Source: an uncultured Aliarcobacter sp. (lineage in GTDB: Bacteria > Campylobacterota > Campylobacteria > Campylobacterales > Arcobacteraceae). From it: a DNA stretch of 64,000 nucleotides. The stretch lies in NCBI GenBank assembly GCA_963664305.2, contig CAXXLV010000002.1, positions 544,001 through 608,000 on the forward strand, in the 5' to 3' direction. The position numbers and the translations under genes are program-made. The notes beneath the pieces were generated by a model. That model was given only the letters and a program-made list of their open reading frames with translations, had not been told where the DNA came from and ran no database searches. Below are positions 1,642 to 16,673 of the stretch, piece by piece; the stretch's first letter is position 1; the number at the start of each line of letters is the position of its first letter.

Positions 1642-2664
1642 TTAAATTATTAACATACCATCGCCATATGAGTAAAATCTATATTTTTCTTTTATGGCTT
1701 CATGGTAAATTTCAAGTGTTTTTTCTAATCCTACAAAAGATGCAATAAGCATAATTAGTGTAGATTTTGGTAAGTGAAAATTTGTAAGTAAATAATCAAC
1801 TTTAATTGGTTGATTTGATGGATTTAAAAACAAATCACATTCACCTTGGATTTTATTTGTTCTTGCATAGTATTCAACTGTTCTAGTAACCGTTGTGCCA
1901 ACTGCTAAAACTTTTTTTGCATTATCTAAAGCTTTTTTTGCTTCTATTCCTATTTCAAAATATTCACTATGCATTGGATGATTTAAAATATCATCCACAT
2001 CAACAGGTTTGAAAGTTCCAGCTCCAACATGAAGTGTAAGATAATTTACATCATATTTATTATTGATTTTTTCTAATAATTCAGATGTAAAATGTAGTGA
2101 TGCCGTAGGAGCTGCAACTGCTCCATAATTTTTAGCAAACAAAGTTTGGTAATCTTTTTCATCCTCTTTTTCATCTTCTCTATTCATATAAGGAGGAAGT
2201 GGAAGATGTCCAATTTTATTTAAAATTTCAACAAGCTCTAAAAAATCTAAGTTTTTATCTTTTTTAAAAAATTTAACAACTCTTGTCCCATCTTCATTTA
2301 ATTCAATTACTTCTGCAATTAAATCTTCATCAAAAAATAGTTTTGTTCCAATTTTTACTTTACCTCGTATCATTACAAGATATCTATCCATAAAAAGAGG
2401 TTTATTTAAAAGAAGTTCAACTTTTCCACCTGATTCTTTTTCTCCAAAAATTCTAGCTTTTATAACTTTTGTGTCATTCAAAAAAATAGATAAATCAGAA
2501 GGTAAAACATCCATTAGATTTTTGAAAGTTGTGTGGGTAATTTTGTTTTCTTTTCTGTTATAAACCAAAAGTCTAGCACTATCTGCTGGACTTACAGGTT
2601 TTGTTGCGATTAACTCTTTTGGTAAATCATAATCGTAACTTGAAGTTTTAAGCGGGTCTAACAA
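1642..2664 (-). CDS. queA: S-adenosylmethionine:tRNA ribosyltransferase-isomerase
   Basis: YDLPKELIA, NDTKVIKAR, AAPTASLHF, LHVGAGTF, TNFHLPKST, YSYGDGMLI motifs. Confidence 0.97.
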   Translation of the reverse strand: MLDPLKTSSYDYDLPKELIATKPVSPADSARLLVYNRKENKITHTTFKNLMDVLPSDLSIFLNDTKVIKARIFGEKESGGKVELLLNKPLFMDRYLVMIRGKVKIGTKLFFDEDLIAEVIELNEDGTRVVKFFKKDKNLDFLELVEILNKIGHLPLPPYMNREDEKEDEKDYQTLFAKNYGAVAAPTASLHFTSELLEKINNKYDVNYLTLHVGAGTFKPVDVDDILNHPMHSEYFEIGIEAKKALDNAKKVLAVGTTVTRTVEYYARTNKIQGECDLFLNPSNQPIKVDYLLTNFHLPKSTLIMLIASFVGLEKTLEIYHEAIKEKYRFYSYGDGMLII

Positions 2665-2666
2665 TT

Positions 2667-3398
2667 CTATTCTTCCTCATCTTCTTCTTTTGCAGCTGGA
2701 TTAAATACTTTTGCTACATAAATAGAAATTCCATATAATAAAATAAGTGGACCAGCCATTAAAAATTGAGTTAAAACATCAGGAGGTGTTAAAAGAGCTG
2801 CAACTATAAATATAATAACAACCGCATATCTAAAGAAATCTTTTAACATTTTATCATCTACAAGTCCGATTTTTGCAAAAAAGAAAGTTATTACAGGTAA
2901 CTCAAATGCAATACCAAATCCAAATAGTAATTTTGTAAAGAAACTAACATATGCTCCAATACTTGGTAATACTGTTACAACAACTGAACCAAAGTTTACT
3001 AAGAACTCAAATCCAAATGGAACAACAACATAATAAGCAAAAGAAGCACCAATTACAAACATTAATGTTGCAAAAAATACAAAAGGAATTACAAGTTTTT
3101 TTTCATGGTCATAAAGTCCAGGAGCTAAAAATAACCACATTTGCCAGAATATTACAGGTAAAGAAAAAATAAACCCAGTAAAAAAAGCTACTTTTAAAGC
3201 TGTAAAGAATGTTTCTTGAAGTTCAACTGCAACCATATGAGAATTTTTAGGTAAAACAGCTTCAACAGGAATCATCATCCAAGTTAAAATAGGTTCATAA
3301 AAAGAAAAACAAACAAAAAACATTGCAACAACAGTTAAAGTAGAGACAATAAGTCTTTTTCTTAAGTCAGCAATATGGGGTTTTAAATCTTCAAACAT
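2667..3398 (-). CDS. tatC: Twin-arginine translocase subunit TatC
   Basis: HIADLRKRL, FLAPGLY..EK, FELP, LTPPD motifs; about six TM segments. Confidence 0.97.
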   Translation of the reverse strand: MFEDLKPHIADLRKRLIVSTLTVVAMFFVCFSFYEPILTWMMIPVEAVLPKNSHMVAVELQETFFTALKVAFFTGFIFSLPVIFWQMWLFLAPGLYDHEKKLVIPFVFFATLMFVIGASFAYYVVVPFGFEFLVNFGSVVVTVLPSIGAYVSFFTKLLFGFGIAFELPVITFFFAKIGLVDDKMLKDFFRYAVVIIFIVAALLTPPDVLTQFLMAGPLILLYGISIYVAKVFNPAAKEEDEEE

Positions 3399-3775
3399 TA
3401 AGCATTTTCCTCTTTTTTGTCTAATTTCTCTTTTTTAAATGAAACTTTTTCACTTTTTTCTTTAGTTTCATTTTTTGGTGTATCAGTATTTAAATCATCT
3501 TTTAAAATTTCATCTAAACCTAAATCAATTTTTGATTCTATTGATAAAGAAGCTTTAGTTTCTTCTATTTGTGATTTAAATTTATTTGCTTCAGTTTTCA
3601 TTTCAGAAATATTTAATTCACTATCTAAAGTTGATTTTGCATCTTCAAGTCCAGATTTGAATTTTCTGATAAATTTTGCAATTTGAACCATTGCATCAGG
3701 TAATTTGTCTGGTCCTAATGCGATAATTGCAATTATTGCAATTAACAAGATTTCCATAAAGCCCATTCCAAACAT
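3398..3775 (-). CDS. tatB: Twin-arginine translocase subunit TatB
   Basis: MFGMGFMEILLIAIIAIIALGPDKLP N-terminus; start moved to ATG at 3775 (GGAG upstream); stop overlaps the tatC start. Confidence 0.93.
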   Translation of the reverse strand: MFGMGFMEILLIAIIAIIALGPDKLPDAMVQIAKFIRKFKSGLEDAKSTLDSELNISEMKTEANKFKSQIEETKASLSIESKIDLGLDEILKDDLNTDTPKNETKEKSEKVSFKKEKLDKKEENA

Positions 3776-10913: not shown

Positions 10914-13028
10914 ATGATAGTTGATATATTAAAAAGAGATGGAACTAAACAAAAATTTGAATCTTATAAAATAGAAGATGCCATAAAAAAGGCTTTTAAA
11001 AGTGTAAATAACAAATATGATATTTCGGTATTTTTTAATGTTCTATTTGAATTAAAGTGTAAAAGAGTAGTTGCTGTTGAAGATATTCAAGATATTATTG
11101 AAAAAGAGCTTTATAAAGCAAGATATTTTGATGTTATGAAATCATTTATTTTATATAGACATCTTCATAAAATTCAAAGGGAGCAGATTTTACAAATAAA
11201 TGATGATACAACATATATAAACTCAACACAAACAATAGAAGAGTATATATCTGGAAGTGATTGGAGAATAAAAGCAAATTCAAATACAGGATATTCTCAT
11301 GCTGGACTTATAAATAATAGTGCTGGAAAAATTATTGCAAACTATTGGCTTGATAAAATTTATACAAAAGAACAAGGATATGCACATAGAAATGGAGATT
11401 ATCATATACATGATTTGGATTGTTTGAGTGGTTATTGTGCAGGTTGGAGTTTAAGAATTTTACTTGATGAGGGATTTAATAAGGTACGAGGAAGAGTTGA
11501 AAGTGATGCACCAAATCATTTTAGAGAAGCTTTGGGGCAAATGGCAAATTTTTTAGGAATACTTCAAAGTGAATGGGCAGGAGCTCAAGCTTTTAGTTCT
11601 TTTGATACATATCTTGCTCCTTATGTTTTCAAAGATAAACTTGAATATAAAGAGATAAAAAAAGCAATTAGAAGTTTTATTTATAATCTTAATGTTCCTG
11701 CACGTTGGGGACAAAGTCCTTTTACAAATATCACTATTGATTGGACTGTTCCAAGTGATTTGAAAGAGCAAATTCCAACAAAAAATCAAAAACATCTATT
11801 TAAAAATTTTTATGATGAAGAACTATTTTTAGAGATTCAAAAAAAAGGTTTAACTTCGTTTGAACAATTAACTTATAAAGATTTTCAAAAAGAGATGAAC
11901 TTAATAAATAAAGCCTATTATGAAGTAATGACTCAAGGTGATAAAACAGGACAGCCTTTTACTTTTCCAATTCCCACTGTAAATATAACTGAAGATTTTG
12001 ATTGGTATGGCGAAAATACAGATTTACTTTTTGAAAATACCGCAAAAATAGGAAGTTCTTATTTTCAAAATTTTATAGGAAGTCAATATAAAAAAGATGA
12101 AAAGGGAAATTTGATACAAAACGAACAAGCCTATAAACCAGGGCATGTAAGAAGTATGTGTTGTAGATTACAACTTGATTTAAGGGAACTTCTAAAACGA
12201 GGTGGAGGTTTGTTTGGAAGTGCTGAAATGACAGGTAGTATTGGAGTTGTAACAATAAATATGGCAAGACTTGGATACTTATATAAAAATGATATAAATG
12301 GTTTATTAAACAGATTAGAAGAGTTGATGGATTTAGCAAAAGAGAGTCTAGAAATAAAACGTAAATTTATAAATAGTATGTATGAAAAAGGACTTTATCC
12401 TTATACAAAAAGATATTTAAAGAGTTTTAATAACCATTTTTCGACTATTGGAGTAAATGGGATGAATGAGATGTTGAAAAACTATTTTGGAGAAAATATT
12501 GATATTTCAACAAAAATAGGAAATCAATTTTGTATCGAAATATTAGATTTTATGAGAGATAAAATGGTCAAATTTCAAGAAGAAACTGGAAATTTATATA
12601 ATCTTGAAGCAACACCAGCAGAAGGAACAACTTATAGATTTGCAAAAGAGGATAAAAAAAGATACAAAGATATTATTCAAGCTGGATTTGATAAAAATAT
12701 TTATTACACTAACTCTTCTCAACTTCCAGTTGATTTTACAGAAGACCCATTTGAAGCCTTGGAATTACAAGATGAATTACAATGCAAATATACAGGTGGA
12801 ACAGTGCTTCATCTTTATATGAGAGAAAAAATTTCATCAGTTGAAGCTTGTAGAAAGTTTGTAAAAAATGTAATTTCAAATTTTAGATTGCCTTATATAA
12901 CAGTAACTCCTGTATTTTCTATTTGTGAAATTCATGGATATATAGAAGGTGAGCACGAGTTTTGTCCAAAATGTGATGAAGAGATTTTAAAAAAGGAGTT
13001 AAAAGATGACAAATCAAGAATTGCTTGA
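10914..13028 (+). CDS. nrdD: Class III (anaerobic) ribonucleoside-triphosphate reductase, large part lacking the glycyl-radical motif
   Basis: N-terminal ATP cone (KRDG), HIHDL, YCAGW, FTFPIPT, SMCCRL finger loop, EATPAEG, YTGGT, C-terminal CEIHG...CPKC. Confidence 0.95.
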   Translation: MIVDILKRDGTKQKFESYKIEDAIKKAFKSVNNKYDISVFFNVLFELKCKRVVAVEDIQDIIEKELYKARYFDVMKSFILYRHLHKIQREQILQINDDTTYINSTQTIEEYISGSDWRIKANSNTGYSHAGLINNSAGKIIANYWLDKIYTKEQGYAHRNGDYHIHDLDCLSGYCAGWSLRILLDEGFNKVRGRVESDAPNHFREALGQMANFLGILQSEWAGAQAFSSFDTYLAPYVFKDKLEYKEIKKAIRSFIYNLNVPARWGQSPFTNITIDWTVPSDLKEQIPTKNQKHLFKNFYDEELFLEIQKKGLTSFEQLTYKDFQKEMNLINKAYYEVMTQGDKTGQPFTFPIPTVNITEDFDWYGENTDLLFENTAKIGSSYFQNFIGSQYKKDEKGNLIQNEQAYKPGHVRSMCCRLQLDLRELLKRGGGLFGSAEMTGSIGVVTINMARLGYLYKNDINGLLNRLEELMDLAKESLEIKRKFINSMYEKGLYPYTKRYLKSFNNHFSTIGVNGMNEMLKNYFGENIDISTKIGNQFCIEILDFMRDKMVKFQEETGNLYNLEATPAEGTTYRFAKEDKKRYKDIIQAGFDKNIYYTNSSQLPVDFTEDPFEALELQDELQCKYTGGTVLHLYMREKISSVEACRKFVKNVISNFRLPYITVTPVFSICEIHGYIEGEHEFCPKCDEEILKKELKDDKSRIA

Positions 13029-13170
13029 GAAAAATATGGAAAAAAGAACTAAATGTATAATATATACTAGAGTTATGGGTTATCATAGACCAATTGAAAG
13101 CTTTAATATAGGAAAAAAAGGTGAACACAAACAAAGAGTTAAATTTACTGAATCAAAAACTAATTTATGA
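13006..13170 (+). CDS. Stand-alone NrdD glycyl-radical subunit (54 aa, not in the ORF track)
   Basis: Hand translation MTNQELLEKNMEKRTKCIIYTRVMGYHRPIESFNIGKKGEHKQRVKFTESKTNL; AAGGAG at 12993-12998; RVMGY glycyl-radical motif. Confidence 0.9.
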   Translation: MTNQELLEKNMEKRTKCIIYTRVMGYHRPIESFNIGKKGEHKQRVKFTESKTNL

Positions 13171-13825
13171 TTTTACAAAATTTACAACAACAGATTATGT
13201 AGGGCAAATGTCATGCATAATTTGGTTTATAAAGTGTAATTTTAGATGTTTGTATTGTTATAATAATACTTTGGTTTATACAAAAAAAGGAAATTATAGT
13301 TTTTTTGAGATTTTAGAGTTTTTAAAATCAAGGGTTGGTTTACTAGATGCTGTTGTTTTAAGTGGTGGTGAATCAAGTTTACATGAGTTGGAAATTTTTT
13401 GTAAAAAAATAAAAAAGTTAGGTTTTAAAATAAAACTTGATACAAATGGAACAAATCTAAATTTAGTAAAGAATTTAACAAAAAAAGGTCTAGTTGATTT
13501 TATCGCTATTGATTTTAAAGCTCCAAAATATAAATTTTCTCAAATTACAGCTACAAATTTTTATGAAAAAGTGATAGATACCATAAAATATCTAATAAAA
13601 ATTGGCTTTGATTTTGAACTAAGAACTACAATAAATACAAGGCTTTTAGATGAGAAAGATATAAATTCTATGATTGAAACTATTAGTTGTTTAAATTATA
13701 AAGGTGTTTATTATTTACAAAACTTTATAGAAACCTCATCAAATATAGGAAATATCAAAAAAAGTAGGGCTATAGATAAAAGTTTAATTGATAGCAAAAA
13801 TTTAACTATTCAATACAGAAATTAA
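13121..13825 (+). CDS. nrdG: Anaerobic ribonucleotide reductase activating enzyme (radical SAM)
   Basis: CNFRCLYC, VVLSGGE, KLDTNG, ELRTT; follows nrdD; exact start uncertain. Confidence 0.92.
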   Translation: MNTNKELNLLNQKLIYDFTKFTTTDYVGQMSCIIWFIKCNFRCLYCYNNTLVYTKKGNYSFFEILEFLKSRVGLLDAVVLSGGESSLHELEIFCKKIKKLGFKIKLDTNGTNLNLVKNLTKKGLVDFIAIDFKAPKYKFSQITATNFYEKVIDTIKYLIKIGFDFELRTTINTRLLDEKDINSMIETISCLNYKGVYYLQNFIETSSNIGNIKKSRAIDKSLIDSKNLTIQYRN

Positions 13826-14479
13826 ATAACCTTGTCCTGAAATATTTTCTATCAAATCTTTAGAAGTTTTTATACGTAATCGTTTTATAAAGGTTCTTAA
13901 TCTTTCATCATTTACCTCTTCATTCCAAAGAGAAGTTTTTATAGTTTGAGTTTTTACTATTGAGTTTTTGTTTTTTAAGAGTAAATATATAAACTCTTTT
14001 TCTCTCTTTGTTAGATTTATTAATAGTTCATTTTTATGTAAAGAGAAGGTATTGTTATCAAAAATAAAATCATCTTTTAGTATGGAAATCTTTTGTTTTT
14101 CTATTTTTATTGAGAGCTTTTTTATATGTTCTATTACTTCATCTGGGTCAAAAGGTTTGATAAAATATTTATTTATTCCAACATCTATAGCTTTTAAAAG
14201 TTTTTCTTTATCAGAGTGTGCACTTAGTACAATTATAGGAATATTAGAATCAATCTCTTTGATTTTTATAGTCATATCTAAACCATCAAGTTTTGGCATC
14301 ATTATATCAGTGATTATAATATCAGGTTTAAAAGTTTTATATTTTTTAAGACCTTCAGTTCCATCTTTTGCAATAATTACTTTATAAAATGAATCATTTA
14401 TAGCCTCTTTTAAAAGTTGAGCTAATCTTTTTTCATCTTCAACTATTAAGATTTTTAGAGTTTTTAATATATCTTGCAT
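13802..14479 (-). CDS. OmpR-family response regulator
   Basis: IVEDE, TDIMMPKLDG, KPFD receiver; winged helix (LTKRE...RLRIK...GQGY). Confidence 0.93.
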   Translation of the reverse strand: MQDILKTLKILIVEDEKRLAQLLKEAINDSFYKVIIAKDGTEGLKKYKTFKPDIIITDIMMPKLDGLDMTIKIKEIDSNIPIIVLSAHSDKEKLLKAIDVGINKYFIKPFDPDEVIEHIKKLSIKIEKQKISILKDDFIFDNNTFSLHKNELLINLTKREKEFIYLLLKNKNSIVKTQTIKTSLWNEEVNDERLRTFIKRLRIKTSKDLIENISGQGYLISVLNS

Positions 14480-14481
14480 TT

Positions 14482-15696
14482 TTACTCTTTTTCATTTAAA
14501 ATTGTGATTGTAAAGATTGAGCCATTTTCACTATTTTTATGGCTTAAAGTACCTTCTAAACTCTTTTCTACAATCATTTTTGACATAAATAATCCAAGTC
14601 CAGTGCCTTGTGATTTATGTTTTGTTGTAAAGTATGGCTCAAAGATAGAATCTATATTTTCTTCTTTAATTCCACCTGCATTATCTTCAATCTCAAGTAA
14701 AAAATATTTTTTGTCTAAATCTTCTTTTAGAGTTATTAAAATATTTTTATCTTCTACATCATTTGTTATAAAAGCATCTTTTGCATTTTGAATTAGGTTT
14801 ATAATAACTTGTGATAGTTCATTTGAAACACCTAAAACTTTGTAGTTTGTAGGAACATTAACCTTGATTTTTATATTTTCTTGTTGAATTAGTTTTTTTA
14901 AAATAGTTAAAGCTTCATTGATACTATCTTTTATCTCAAAACTTTTTTTCTCTTTTTTAGGATTGAAAAAGTTCATAAAATCTTCAATAGTTGTTGACAT
15001 ACTTGAAATTAGATTTTTACTCTCTTTATATAACTCTTCAACTTTTTTTTCATCTTTTTTTAAAGAGGCTTTTTTCATATTAAACAAAGTAAGATTTAAC
15101 TCAGTTAGAGGTTGTCTCCATTGATGGGCAATATTTCCTATCATTTGTCCTAAACTTGCCATTCTTGATTGCCAAAAAAGAAGTTTTTGTTTTTCATCAT
15201 TTTTAGCTATCTCTTCTTGAACTCTTTTTTTTAAAGTTTTATTTAGTTCTTTTAGTTGTTTAGTTTGTTCTTTTACTTTTAATTCTAGATTTTGATTTAA
15301 CTCTTCAAGCTCTTTTTCTTTTTGCTCTAAACTTTTTTTGAGCTCAACCTCAAAAGTTACATCATATCTTATAGCAATAAATTCAATAATATTTTCAAAT
15401 TCATCTAAAATAGGCGTTATAGTAGTATTTAAGTAGACAGTTTTTCCATCTTTCGTAAGATTTTTTACAGTTGCTTTATATGGTTTTTTATCTAAAATAG
15501 TTTTCCATAAAAGTTCAAAACTTGAAGCTTGTACCTCTGGATGTCTTACGATGTTATGGTTTTGACCTATTAATTCATCATAAGAGTATCCAGAGATTTT
15601 GCAAAACTCATCATTTACAAAAGTGATAATTCCACTTATATCAGTTTTTGATACAATATTTGAATTTTCAATTGCTTCTTGATAAGTTGTGCTCAT
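14482..15696 (-). CDS. Cytoplasmic PAS-domain sensor histidine kinase
   Basis: PAS (SKTD..GIITFVN..F..ISGY..ELIGQNHNIVRHP), H box AHQWRQPL, NAKDA, DNAGG, FTTK, GTGLGL. Confidence 0.93.
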   Translation of the reverse strand: MSTTYQEAIENSNIVSKTDISGIITFVNDEFCKISGYSYDELIGQNHNIVRHPEVQASSFELLWKTILDKKPYKATVKNLTKDGKTVYLNTTITPILDEFENIIEFIAIRYDVTFEVELKKSLEQKEKELEELNQNLELKVKEQTKQLKELNKTLKKRVQEEIAKNDEKQKLLFWQSRMASLGQMIGNIAHQWRQPLTELNLTLFNMKKASLKKDEKKVEELYKESKNLISSMSTTIEDFMNFFNPKKEKKSFEIKDSINEALTILKKLIQQENIKIKVNVPTNYKVLGVSNELSQVIINLIQNAKDAFITNDVEDKNILITLKEDLDKKYFLLEIEDNAGGIKEENIDSIFEPYFTTKHKSQGTGLGLFMSKMIVEKSLEGTLSHKNSENGSIFTITILNEKE

Positions 15697-15698
15697 TT

Positions 15699-16673
15699 TT
15701 AGTTGTTTCTTAAAATTTCGCAAACCTCTTTTGCATGGTAAGAGATGATGATATTTGCACCAGCTCTTTTAAATGCAATCATAGTTTCCATCATAACTCT
15801 TTCATAATCAATTAATCCAGCAATTCCAGCATGTTTAAGCATAGCGTACTCTCCACTTACATTATAAACACATAAAGGAAGATTTGTTTGGTTTCTAATA
15901 TCTCTAACAATATCTAAAAATGCAAGTGCTGGTTTTACCATCAAAATATCTGCACCTTCTTTTTCATCTTCAAGTGATTCTTCAATTGCTTCAAGTCTAT
16001 TTGCTGGATTCATTTGATATGTTCTTCTATCACCAAAACTTGGAGTTGATTCAGCAACATCTCTAAATGGTCCATAATATCCACTTGCAAATTTTGTTGA
16101 ATATGCCATGATTGGAAGATTTTTAAATCCATTTTCATCAAGTGCATTTCTTAAAGTAGTAATAATCCCATCCATCATTCCTGAAGGTGCTATCATATCA
16201 GCTCCAGCACGAGCATGAACCACTGCTTGTTGAGCAGAGATTTCTAATGTTTTATCATTATCAACACTTCCAGTTTTTGGGTCTAAAATACCACAATGTC
16301 CATGGTCTGTATATTCACAAAAACATAAATCAGTTACGATAAACATTTGAGGGAATTTTGCTTTGATTGCTTTAATAGTTCTTGCAATTATGCTTTCACC
16401 ACATAAACATTCACTTCCAACTGAATCTTTAGTATCTGGAATTCCAAATAAAATAATTGATTTTAAATTTATACTTACTAAATACTCACACTCTTTTAAA
16501 ATTTCATCAATACTCATTTGATAAACACCAGGCATTGATGCAACTTCAGTTTTTATATTTTGACCTTCTCTTACAAATAATGGATAGATGAAATCATCAG
16601 GTGTTAAAACTGTTTCTTGTACTAAGTTTCTTAGTGTTTCATTAATTCTTAATCTTCTAAATCGTTTAAACAT
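15699..16673 (-). CDS. hemB: Porphobilinogen synthase
   Basis: [32 protein letters not shown]. Confidence 0.97.

Follow-up and report, generated by a model that had tools for sequence, protein, structure and literature searches.

In the stretch of DNA analysed here (hereafter the window), 64,000 nucleotides (nt) from an uncultured Aliarcobacter sp. on contig CAXXLV010000002.1, three overlapping genes for a class III ribonucleotide reductase (RNR) lie one after another on the forward strand. The first encodes the body of the reductase (nrdD-large), the second a 54-amino-acid (aa) protein with the predicted radical site (nrdD-small), and the third the activase (nrdG). In class III RNR the glycyl radical domain is described at the C-terminus of the alpha subunit, within a single catalytic chain (available parts of PMC9531940 and PMC9669993). 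The genes and features at the locus are listed below.

10914..13028, + strand: nrdD-large, 704 aa, with ATP-cone, barrel and Zn ribbon; the glycyl-radical motif is absent
10926..11171, + strand: ATP-cone domain, residues 5-86 of nrdD-large (PF03477, 2.4e-17)
12924..12974, + strand: Zn-ribbon motif C671-x2-H674-x9-C684-x2-C687, the final folded element of the large chain
12993..12998, + strand: Shine-Dalgarno (SD) sequence AAGGAG, within the nrdD-large coding sequence, with the ATG of the small gene 7 nt downstream
13006..13170, + strand: nrdD-small, 54 aa, 6 kDa, ATG start, +1 frame, overlapping nrdD-large by 23 nt
13078..13080, + strand: codon of Gly25, GGT in AGA GTT ATG GGT TAT, the predicted radical site
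13121..13825, + strand: nrdG, 234 aa, GTG start, radical-SAM activase

A first-pass annotation of this DNA had held that the 704-aa NrdD ends shortly past its metal site and lacks the radical motif, and profile searches bear this out. The large chain matched Pfam NRDD (PF13597) with 5.8e-166 and 553.9 bits against a cut-off of 26.2, NF006126 over positions 2-658 of 684 (1097.4 bits, cut-off 548) and TIGR02487 (422.5 bits, cut-off 326). The NRDD match runs from position 2 to position 529 of 562 and stops there, and no RVxGY glycyl-radical motif was found on the 704-aa chain. A tail of 17 residues follows the C671...C687 motif, and the TGA stop lies at 13026-13028. C671, H674, C684 and C687 are invariant in 34 of 34 large chains, as are the catalytic residues. 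The Zn motif aligns with that of T. maritima NrdD, in which Zn is bound through CxxxHx6CxxC and the ribbon separates the last barrel strand from the Gly loop (PMC4493059, in the part available). By homology, the metal site of the large chain appears complete and is predicted to bind Zn. The cut in the window NrdD coincides with the domain boundary at which the Zn ribbon meets the Gly loop.

The first-pass annotation had also pointed to a +1-frame open reading frame (ORF) with its own AAGGAG and ATG, overlapping both nrdD and nrdG, and all of this can be read from the DNA. Its product matched NRDD over positions 531-562 of 562 (27.6 bits against a cut-off of 26.2) and NF006126 over positions 649-682 of 684. 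NRDD was the only family that matched the small chain at E<=1; Pfam Gly_radical, the C-terminal domain of pyruvate formate-lyase (PFL), did not match. Since the large chain runs from the start of the profile to the Zn ribbon and the small chain covers the end of the profile, the two together make up one NrdD, divided where the Zn ribbon gives way to the Gly loop. The small-chain motif consists of C17 and T21-R-V-M-G25-Y-H-R-P29. Gly25 is invariant in alignments A1 and A3, and 19 columns are invariant among 34 small chains. Over the 30 small-gene codons free of overlap with either neighbour, pN/pS was 0.21, a value pooled from 26 same-genus comparisons that are mutually non-independent. This ratio, together with the retention of the frame in relatives (below), places the small ORF beyond chance.

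The product of nrdG matched TIGR02495 (NrdG2) with 2.8e-52 and 176.9 bits against a cut-off of 131, and also matched Radical_SAM and Fer4_12. If nrdG starts at GTG 13121, which is the sole in-frame common start codon (ATG, GTG or TTG) preceding the conserved NrdG core, it overlaps nrdD-small by 50 nt. In the host genome (2 contigs, 99.96% complete), the two-piece gene is the sole nrdD, and no one-chain NrdD was found.

Spread of the two-gene layout

The first-pass annotation had proposed a natural two-chain NrdD, and searches with both parts supported a conserved split. Among 61 related genomes, the small frame was separate from the large gene in 41, in open frames of 34-73 aa; this count is 42 matches minus one chance match (in G001). 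The weak G001 match was taken as chance by its likeness to a second small-chain match in G008, which was rejected as it lies inside a permease gene on the opposite strand. When the same 61 genomes were searched with the NRDD family, the large gene turned up in 42, and the end of the profile was reached in none of these 42. One genome with the large gene yielded no small match (G021), and there a contig end cuts the large gene. In a sample of the phylum, the small frame was present in 94 of 201 genomes and 24 of 45 genera. All of these matches but two lay in open frames of at most 101 aa (nearly all 48-92 aa), and the two others in frames of 746 and 922 aa.

The same picture emerged from larger collections. 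Among 1.84 billion cluster representatives, 1136 matched the small chain at E<=1e-3; the best 150 of these were all 43-145 aa long and 148 of them began with Met, while one of the 150 (P0202) is clearly an incomplete fused protein. When species genomes were scanned with an alignment of 45 small proteins, at least 599 stretches were found to encode RVMGYHRP. The best 80 of these loci, none of which was fused, belong to Arcobacteraceae, Campylobacter, Sulfurospirillum, Helicobacteraceae and Sulfurimonadaceae, to many Bacteroidota (Flavobacterium, Parapedobacter, Algoriphagus, Saprospiraceae and others), to one metagenome-assembled genome (MAG) of the PVC group and to one Akkermansia MAG. The expectation of the first-pass annotation that similar splits occur in other genomes therefore holds for Campylobacterota, Bacteroidota and PVC bacteria. 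In the samples searched, nearly all nrdD-bearing Campylobacterales have the split layout. The small chain was not found in 50,697 phage records (tblastn, E<=1e-3), where the shortness of the query makes this weak evidence of absence. Public records already list a 54-aa 'anaerobic ribonucleoside-triphosphate reductase' in Aliarcobacter, Poseidonibacter and Campylobacter, so the gene models themselves are not new.

The arrangement of the two genes varies widely among the best 80 loci. In 62 of them the large gene ends nearby, with an overlap of 4-92 nt or a spacer of up to 176 nt; one of the 80 (L077) has an ATGA overlap in GC-rich DNA. In three Flavobacterium loci (L060, L063 and L095), 162-379 nt separate the large-gene stop from the Gly motif downstream; this leaves spacers of roughly 100-320 nt ahead of the small ATG, made up of short tandem-like repeats (e.g. 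ttctaaac... and ctttaaac... units). In a Saprospiraceae locus (L079), the two genes about abut. In eight loci from uncultured Campylobacter, an nrdG-like gene comes after the small gene, and the 3.5 kb upstream contain no large gene. The large gene is broken in C. concisus (L050, a frameshifted tail) and in a Helicobacter MAG (L078, an in-frame stop), each beside an intact small gene; these two large genes may be pseudogenes or assembly errors. A further locus (L081) contains a run of N.

In an Arcobacteraceae MAG (L085), two genes (2645-3470) stand between the large and small genes. They encode a PAC_bac protein (PF21758, proteasome-assembly-chaperone-like) and a NifU_N/IscU-like protein. Among class II RNRs, long C-termini are described that hold IscU-like domains (PMC9669993, in the part available). 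The products of the inserted genes could possibly help the two-chain enzyme with Fe-S clusters or assembly.

The large chains of Campylobacterota, Bacteroidota and PVC bacteria are 66-83% identical (alignment A2). This is far above our own expectation for sequences from different phyla. Such unexpectedly close large chains suggest that the whole two-gene unit may have been transferred horizontally.

Junctions between the two genes

Junctions were read in 28 of the 30 same-genus cases; the small ORF is present in the other two as well (L017 and L032). All 28 place the small gene in the +1 frame with a 23-26 nt overlap, an ATG, and GGAG or GGAA at the same spacing. Ten other genera of the order are arranged differently: six have a 4-nt ATGA overlap, and the others have 8-nt and 14-nt overlaps, a 17-nt spacer with stops, or an in-frame stop plus 21 nt. 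Because the junction types differ among genera, a single frameshift signal is inadequate to account for them, while independent initiation is adequate. The two-gene architecture is conserved under purifying selection over three phyla, with many junction types.

Under a programmed +1 ribosomal frameshift in the 23-nt overlap (13006-13028), this genus would make a fused chain of ~750 aa, and the ATG and SD would be incidental. Across the 28 same-genus junctions, the overlap (ending ...ATT GCT TGA) indeed hardly varies, and the small gene is in the +1 frame every time. However, dual coding accounts for this conservation, as the same nucleotides read I-A-stop in one frame and L-L-E in the other, and the SD and ATG are retained in 28 of 28 junctions. 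No known slippery motif was recognised in the overlap, and the SD lies ~28 nt upstream of the nrdD-large stop, whereas in prfB the SD is 3 nt from the frameshift stop. In addition, other genera use +2-frame ATGA overlaps, in-frame stops, spacers of 17 to ~300 nt, inserted genes and unlinked loci. These varied junctions and unlinked loci show that the protein works as two chains in those genera, and we consider a frameshift in this one very improbable.

An assembly or sequencing indel, or a decaying pseudogene, is a still poorer explanation, to which we assign next to no probability. A homopolymer A-run at 12989-12994, just upstream of the junction and the small gene, is the kind of site that favours it. 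However, a TAA at 13000-13002, downstream of this run, shuts the small frame two codons upstream of its ATG, so that an indel in the A-run is unable to join the frames. The first-pass annotation had argued against a sequencing frameshift, and this argument is strengthened by the sameness of the junction in 28 genomes of the genus, many of which are complete as a single contig. Contigs assembled from other public runs, two RNA libraries and one DNA run, span 12980-13030 with 0 gaps and no indel; they cover 12590-13069 and 12807-13146 (RNA libraries) and 12858-13090 (DNA), and all come from relatives. Purifying selection on the small gene and the invariance of the catalytic and Zn residues likewise oppose decay. 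Both the frameshift and the error or pseudogene explanation are thus as good as eliminated.

Predicted assembly of the two chains

The complex was predicted from the large chain (with an alignment of 34 sequences), Zn and the small chain (with a matched alignment of 34), alongside three controls. The model of the complex, one of the checks foreseen in the first-pass annotation, came out in favour of docking: predicted ipSAE values were 0.88, 0.87 and 0.88, against 0.00 for the best control. The predicted interface had 170-187 contacts, the partner pLDDT was 84-86, and the runs agreed in at least 94% of contacts. The ipSAE mark is reached by 116 of 157 solved complexes and by 2 of 215 mismatched pairs, a calibration that is rough here, where our own alignments and a ligand were used. 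In the model, small-chain residues 17-20 pair with large-chain residues 667-671, and residues 21-29 and 32-49 line the barrel. A Zn site shared between the chains is a possibility: homology points to a complete ribbon in the large chain, but in the model the small chain contacts C671 and C684 through its invariant Cys17. Most fused relatives retain Cys17 too, and it is therefore not an adaptation to the split. A search of the PDB with a profile of 34 small chains gave no match at E<=1, so the equivalent of Cys17 could not be placed on a solved structure by sequence.

The locus very probably encodes a two-chain class III RNR with its activase, in which the two chains are translated independently, NrdG puts the radical on Gly25 and the small chain docks beside the Zn ribbon. 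Ribosomes would start the small gene independently, by translational coupling, and its product would lose a hydrogen of Gly25 to NrdG. Docking would follow through pairing of small-chain strand 17-20 with large-chain strand 667-671, beside the ribbon, and would bring the TRVMGY loop into the barrel. There, as in the one-chain enzymes, nucleotide reduction would begin with a thiyl radical formed by the glycyl radical. The peptide is predicted to be an obligatory subunit in this host, whose genome has a single small gene and lacks a one-chain NrdD.

The one-chain enzymes offer the closest comparison. In NrdD of P. copri (8P23), T. maritima (4COI and 4U3E) and phage T4 (1H78), and in the family NF006126/PRK08270, the domain order is the same, from the ATP-cone through the NRDD barrel and the Zn ribbon to the RVxGY glycyl loop, and an NrdG2-type activase is adjacent. 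The enzyme in the window differs in that the division falls after the Zn ribbon and before the Gly loop, which forms a free-standing 54-aa protein with a start of its own.

Several points weigh against the two-chain reading. Because one-chain NrdD structures have been solved, the success of the docking may reflect likeness to them, as the halves of split genes tend to pass in this way. The RNA-library contigs across the junction come from relatives that are 93-97% alike, and such libraries can contain DNA. The probable source run (X1) covers 12572-12664 only, with the junction outside. The two-chain enzyme and its radical are known here from genes and a predicted model.

Beyond nrdG, a convergent gene on the minus strand (13802-14479), which from its sequence encodes a candidate response regulator, overlaps the 3' end of nrdG with its own 3' end by 24 nt (13802-13825), and there is no space for a terminator between the two. 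A further minus-strand ORF (14482-15723) is, by sequence alone, a candidate sensor kinase.

Permanent subunit or exchangeable part

Fused relatives of the small chain also exist. Word-indexed searches returned 1436 short relatives (29-95 aa) and 160 long ones (>=96 aa), the latter including fused enzymes of Chitinophaga, Arcticibacter, Streptomyces and Actinomyces. Within the order there are two fused forms, each followed by nrdG (L133, 743 aa; L134, 893 aa). Their linker from the CxxC to the conserved Cys is 6-8 residues long, and that of fused relatives overall 6-21; in the window, 17 residues of large-chain tail and 16 of small-chain leader stand in its place. The NRDD domain of L134 (2120-4801, in genome G228) begins at residue 286, and of the two stretches that matched the ATP-cone the better is 210-250; its N-terminal region may be extended or doubled. 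To follow the two states, 59 large chains cut after the Zn motif (37 split, 22 fused) were placed on a quick maximum-likelihood tree with SH-aLRT support. Split and fused forms were interleaved, and 7 state changes were needed, at least 3 of them forced by well-supported branches. Fission or fusion therefore occurred several times.

In Campylobacter, the small gene also occurs apart from the large one. Two genomes (G144 and G239) each have one lone large gene, a small gene followed by nrdG at a separate locus, and two further small genes in prophage-like regions, and three others (G131, G172 and G196) have an adjacent pair and one more small gene. One of the best 80 loci described above (L117) is prophage-like as well. 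The extra small copies in prophage-like regions lie at the following positions.

L126:3358-3534: extra small gene, G144
L127:3657-3845: extra small gene, G144
L130:3563-3745: extra small gene, G239
L131:3388-3570: extra small gene, G239
L117:3501-3677: extra small gene, prophage-like locus

The prophage-like copies stand between a holin gene (phrog_2073) and a DUF5675 gene (PF18925) that overlaps the 3' end of the small gene. Nearby are a spanin-like gene, a tail assembly chaperone gene, tail-fibre-like genes, and an integrase or DNA methyltransferase gene. The core of one such copy (KRTKC...VKF) differs from the chromosomal copy at 1 of ~36 positions, as compared by eye. The small chain of Campylobacter is thus encodable away from the body and is tied more tightly to the activase. 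The unlinked and prophage-borne copies lend some support to the view that the peptide can act in trans.

These data bear on two readings, which differ only in whether the peptide exchanges. According to the first, the gene was split by neutral fission and the small chain remains bound, as a stoichiometric subunit, for as long as the enzyme lasts. The split would yield no gain in repair or regulation and would persist since both forms work; we give this reading about an even chance of being right. The interleaved tree suggests easy exchange between two states of roughly equal fitness, the window genome has one small gene that is translationally coupled to the large gene, and fused close relatives are found in Chitinophaga, Arcticibacter and Streptomyces. 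On the other hand, short relatives far outnumber long ones, and the best 150 of the 1136 cluster representatives are all short. Moreover, the small gene of Campylobacter travels with nrdG and not with the large gene, and extra prophage-like copies are hard to explain for a merely permanent subunit.

According to the second reading, in line with the cheap repair of oxygen damage that the first-pass annotation had suggested, the peptide is a consumable, exchangeable radical cofactor. It would be charged by NrdG while free, dock reversibly and be discarded after O2 cleavage at Gly25, so that the 704-residue body survives, and temperate phages of Campylobacter would carry copies to sustain the deoxynucleoside triphosphate (dNTP) supply of the host. 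We put this forward tentatively, as a possibility with rather less than an even chance. The evidence from copies in trans comes from Campylobacter genomes, and the window genome has one small copy, which tells against oxygen repair in this host. So does the interleaving of split and fused forms on the tree. Chitinophaga and Streptomyces are aerobic genera; with fused relatives in such genera, the split has no clear link with oxygen habit, which also speaks against a repair function.

Proteins that do serve as spare parts offer a parallel to an exchangeable peptide. GrcA/YfiD of E. coli and Y06I of phage T4, spare parts of PFL, are likewise small free-standing glycyl-radical-loop proteins and must act in trans, and the presence of Y06I in phage T4 resembles that of the extra small genes in Campylobacter prophage-like regions. 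Y06I is reportedly a PFL spare part, going by the title of Wagner et al. 2001. GrcA, a member of Pfam Gly_radical, supplements a full-length PFL equipped with a Gly domain of its own. In contrast, the parent enzyme in the window has no Gly domain, the predicted peptide would be obligatory, and it matches NRDD only. In the available part of a June 2026 review, formate lyases are given as the only class of glycyl radical enzyme (GRE) with known spare-part proteins (PMC13450708).

Divided RNR genes are known from elsewhere. The catalytic subunit of class II RNR is likewise encoded by two consecutive genes, NrdJa and NrdJb, in Pseudomonas aeruginosa and in the Thermus phage phiYS40. NrdJb is the second chain, with the C-terminal accessory part (a Zn finger) (PMC9669993 and PMC3653736, in the parts available). 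This pair differs from the genes of the window in that it is class II, uses an adenosylcobalamin cofactor and is cut at another site, and NrdJb has no radical residue. In the available parts of PMC9531940 and PMC9669993, split RNR is discussed only for NrdJa/NrdJb. In phages, nrdD is also annotated in more than one piece, as in Aeromonas phage phiAS4; a split nrdD was reported in 6 of 16 phage genomes with split RNR genes, in connection with introns, inteins and endonucleases (PMC3653736, in the part available). Those cases are mobile-element interruptions or unexplained breaks in single phages, whereas at this locus no intron, intein or endonuclease plays a part and the cut falls at the same place in different phyla. 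The openly available full-text literature, subscription-only papers being outside the scope of the search, yielded no description of a class III RNR whose glycyl radical is carried by a second chain, and the available part of PMC11528403 makes no mention of a two-chain class III RNR. The two-chain class III RNR is real, conserved and widespread; it is listed piecemeal in databases and, within the reach of our searches, is undescribed in print.

The layout is common, with more than 1000 cluster representatives and at least 599 genomic stretches. Surveys that drop NrdD entries without a Gly motif, or that drop 50-aa 'fragments', misjudge these enzymes. The two-chain enzyme is a natural system in which enzymologists can handle the radical domain and the barrel separately, and it bears on a question that concerns GREs as a whole, namely how the activase gains access to its glycine when the active enzyme keeps this residue buried. 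It also offers a test of small-part swapping as oxygen repair outside PFL and GrcA. If the peptide is indeed exchangeable, this would be the first GRE spare-part system beyond the formate lyases.

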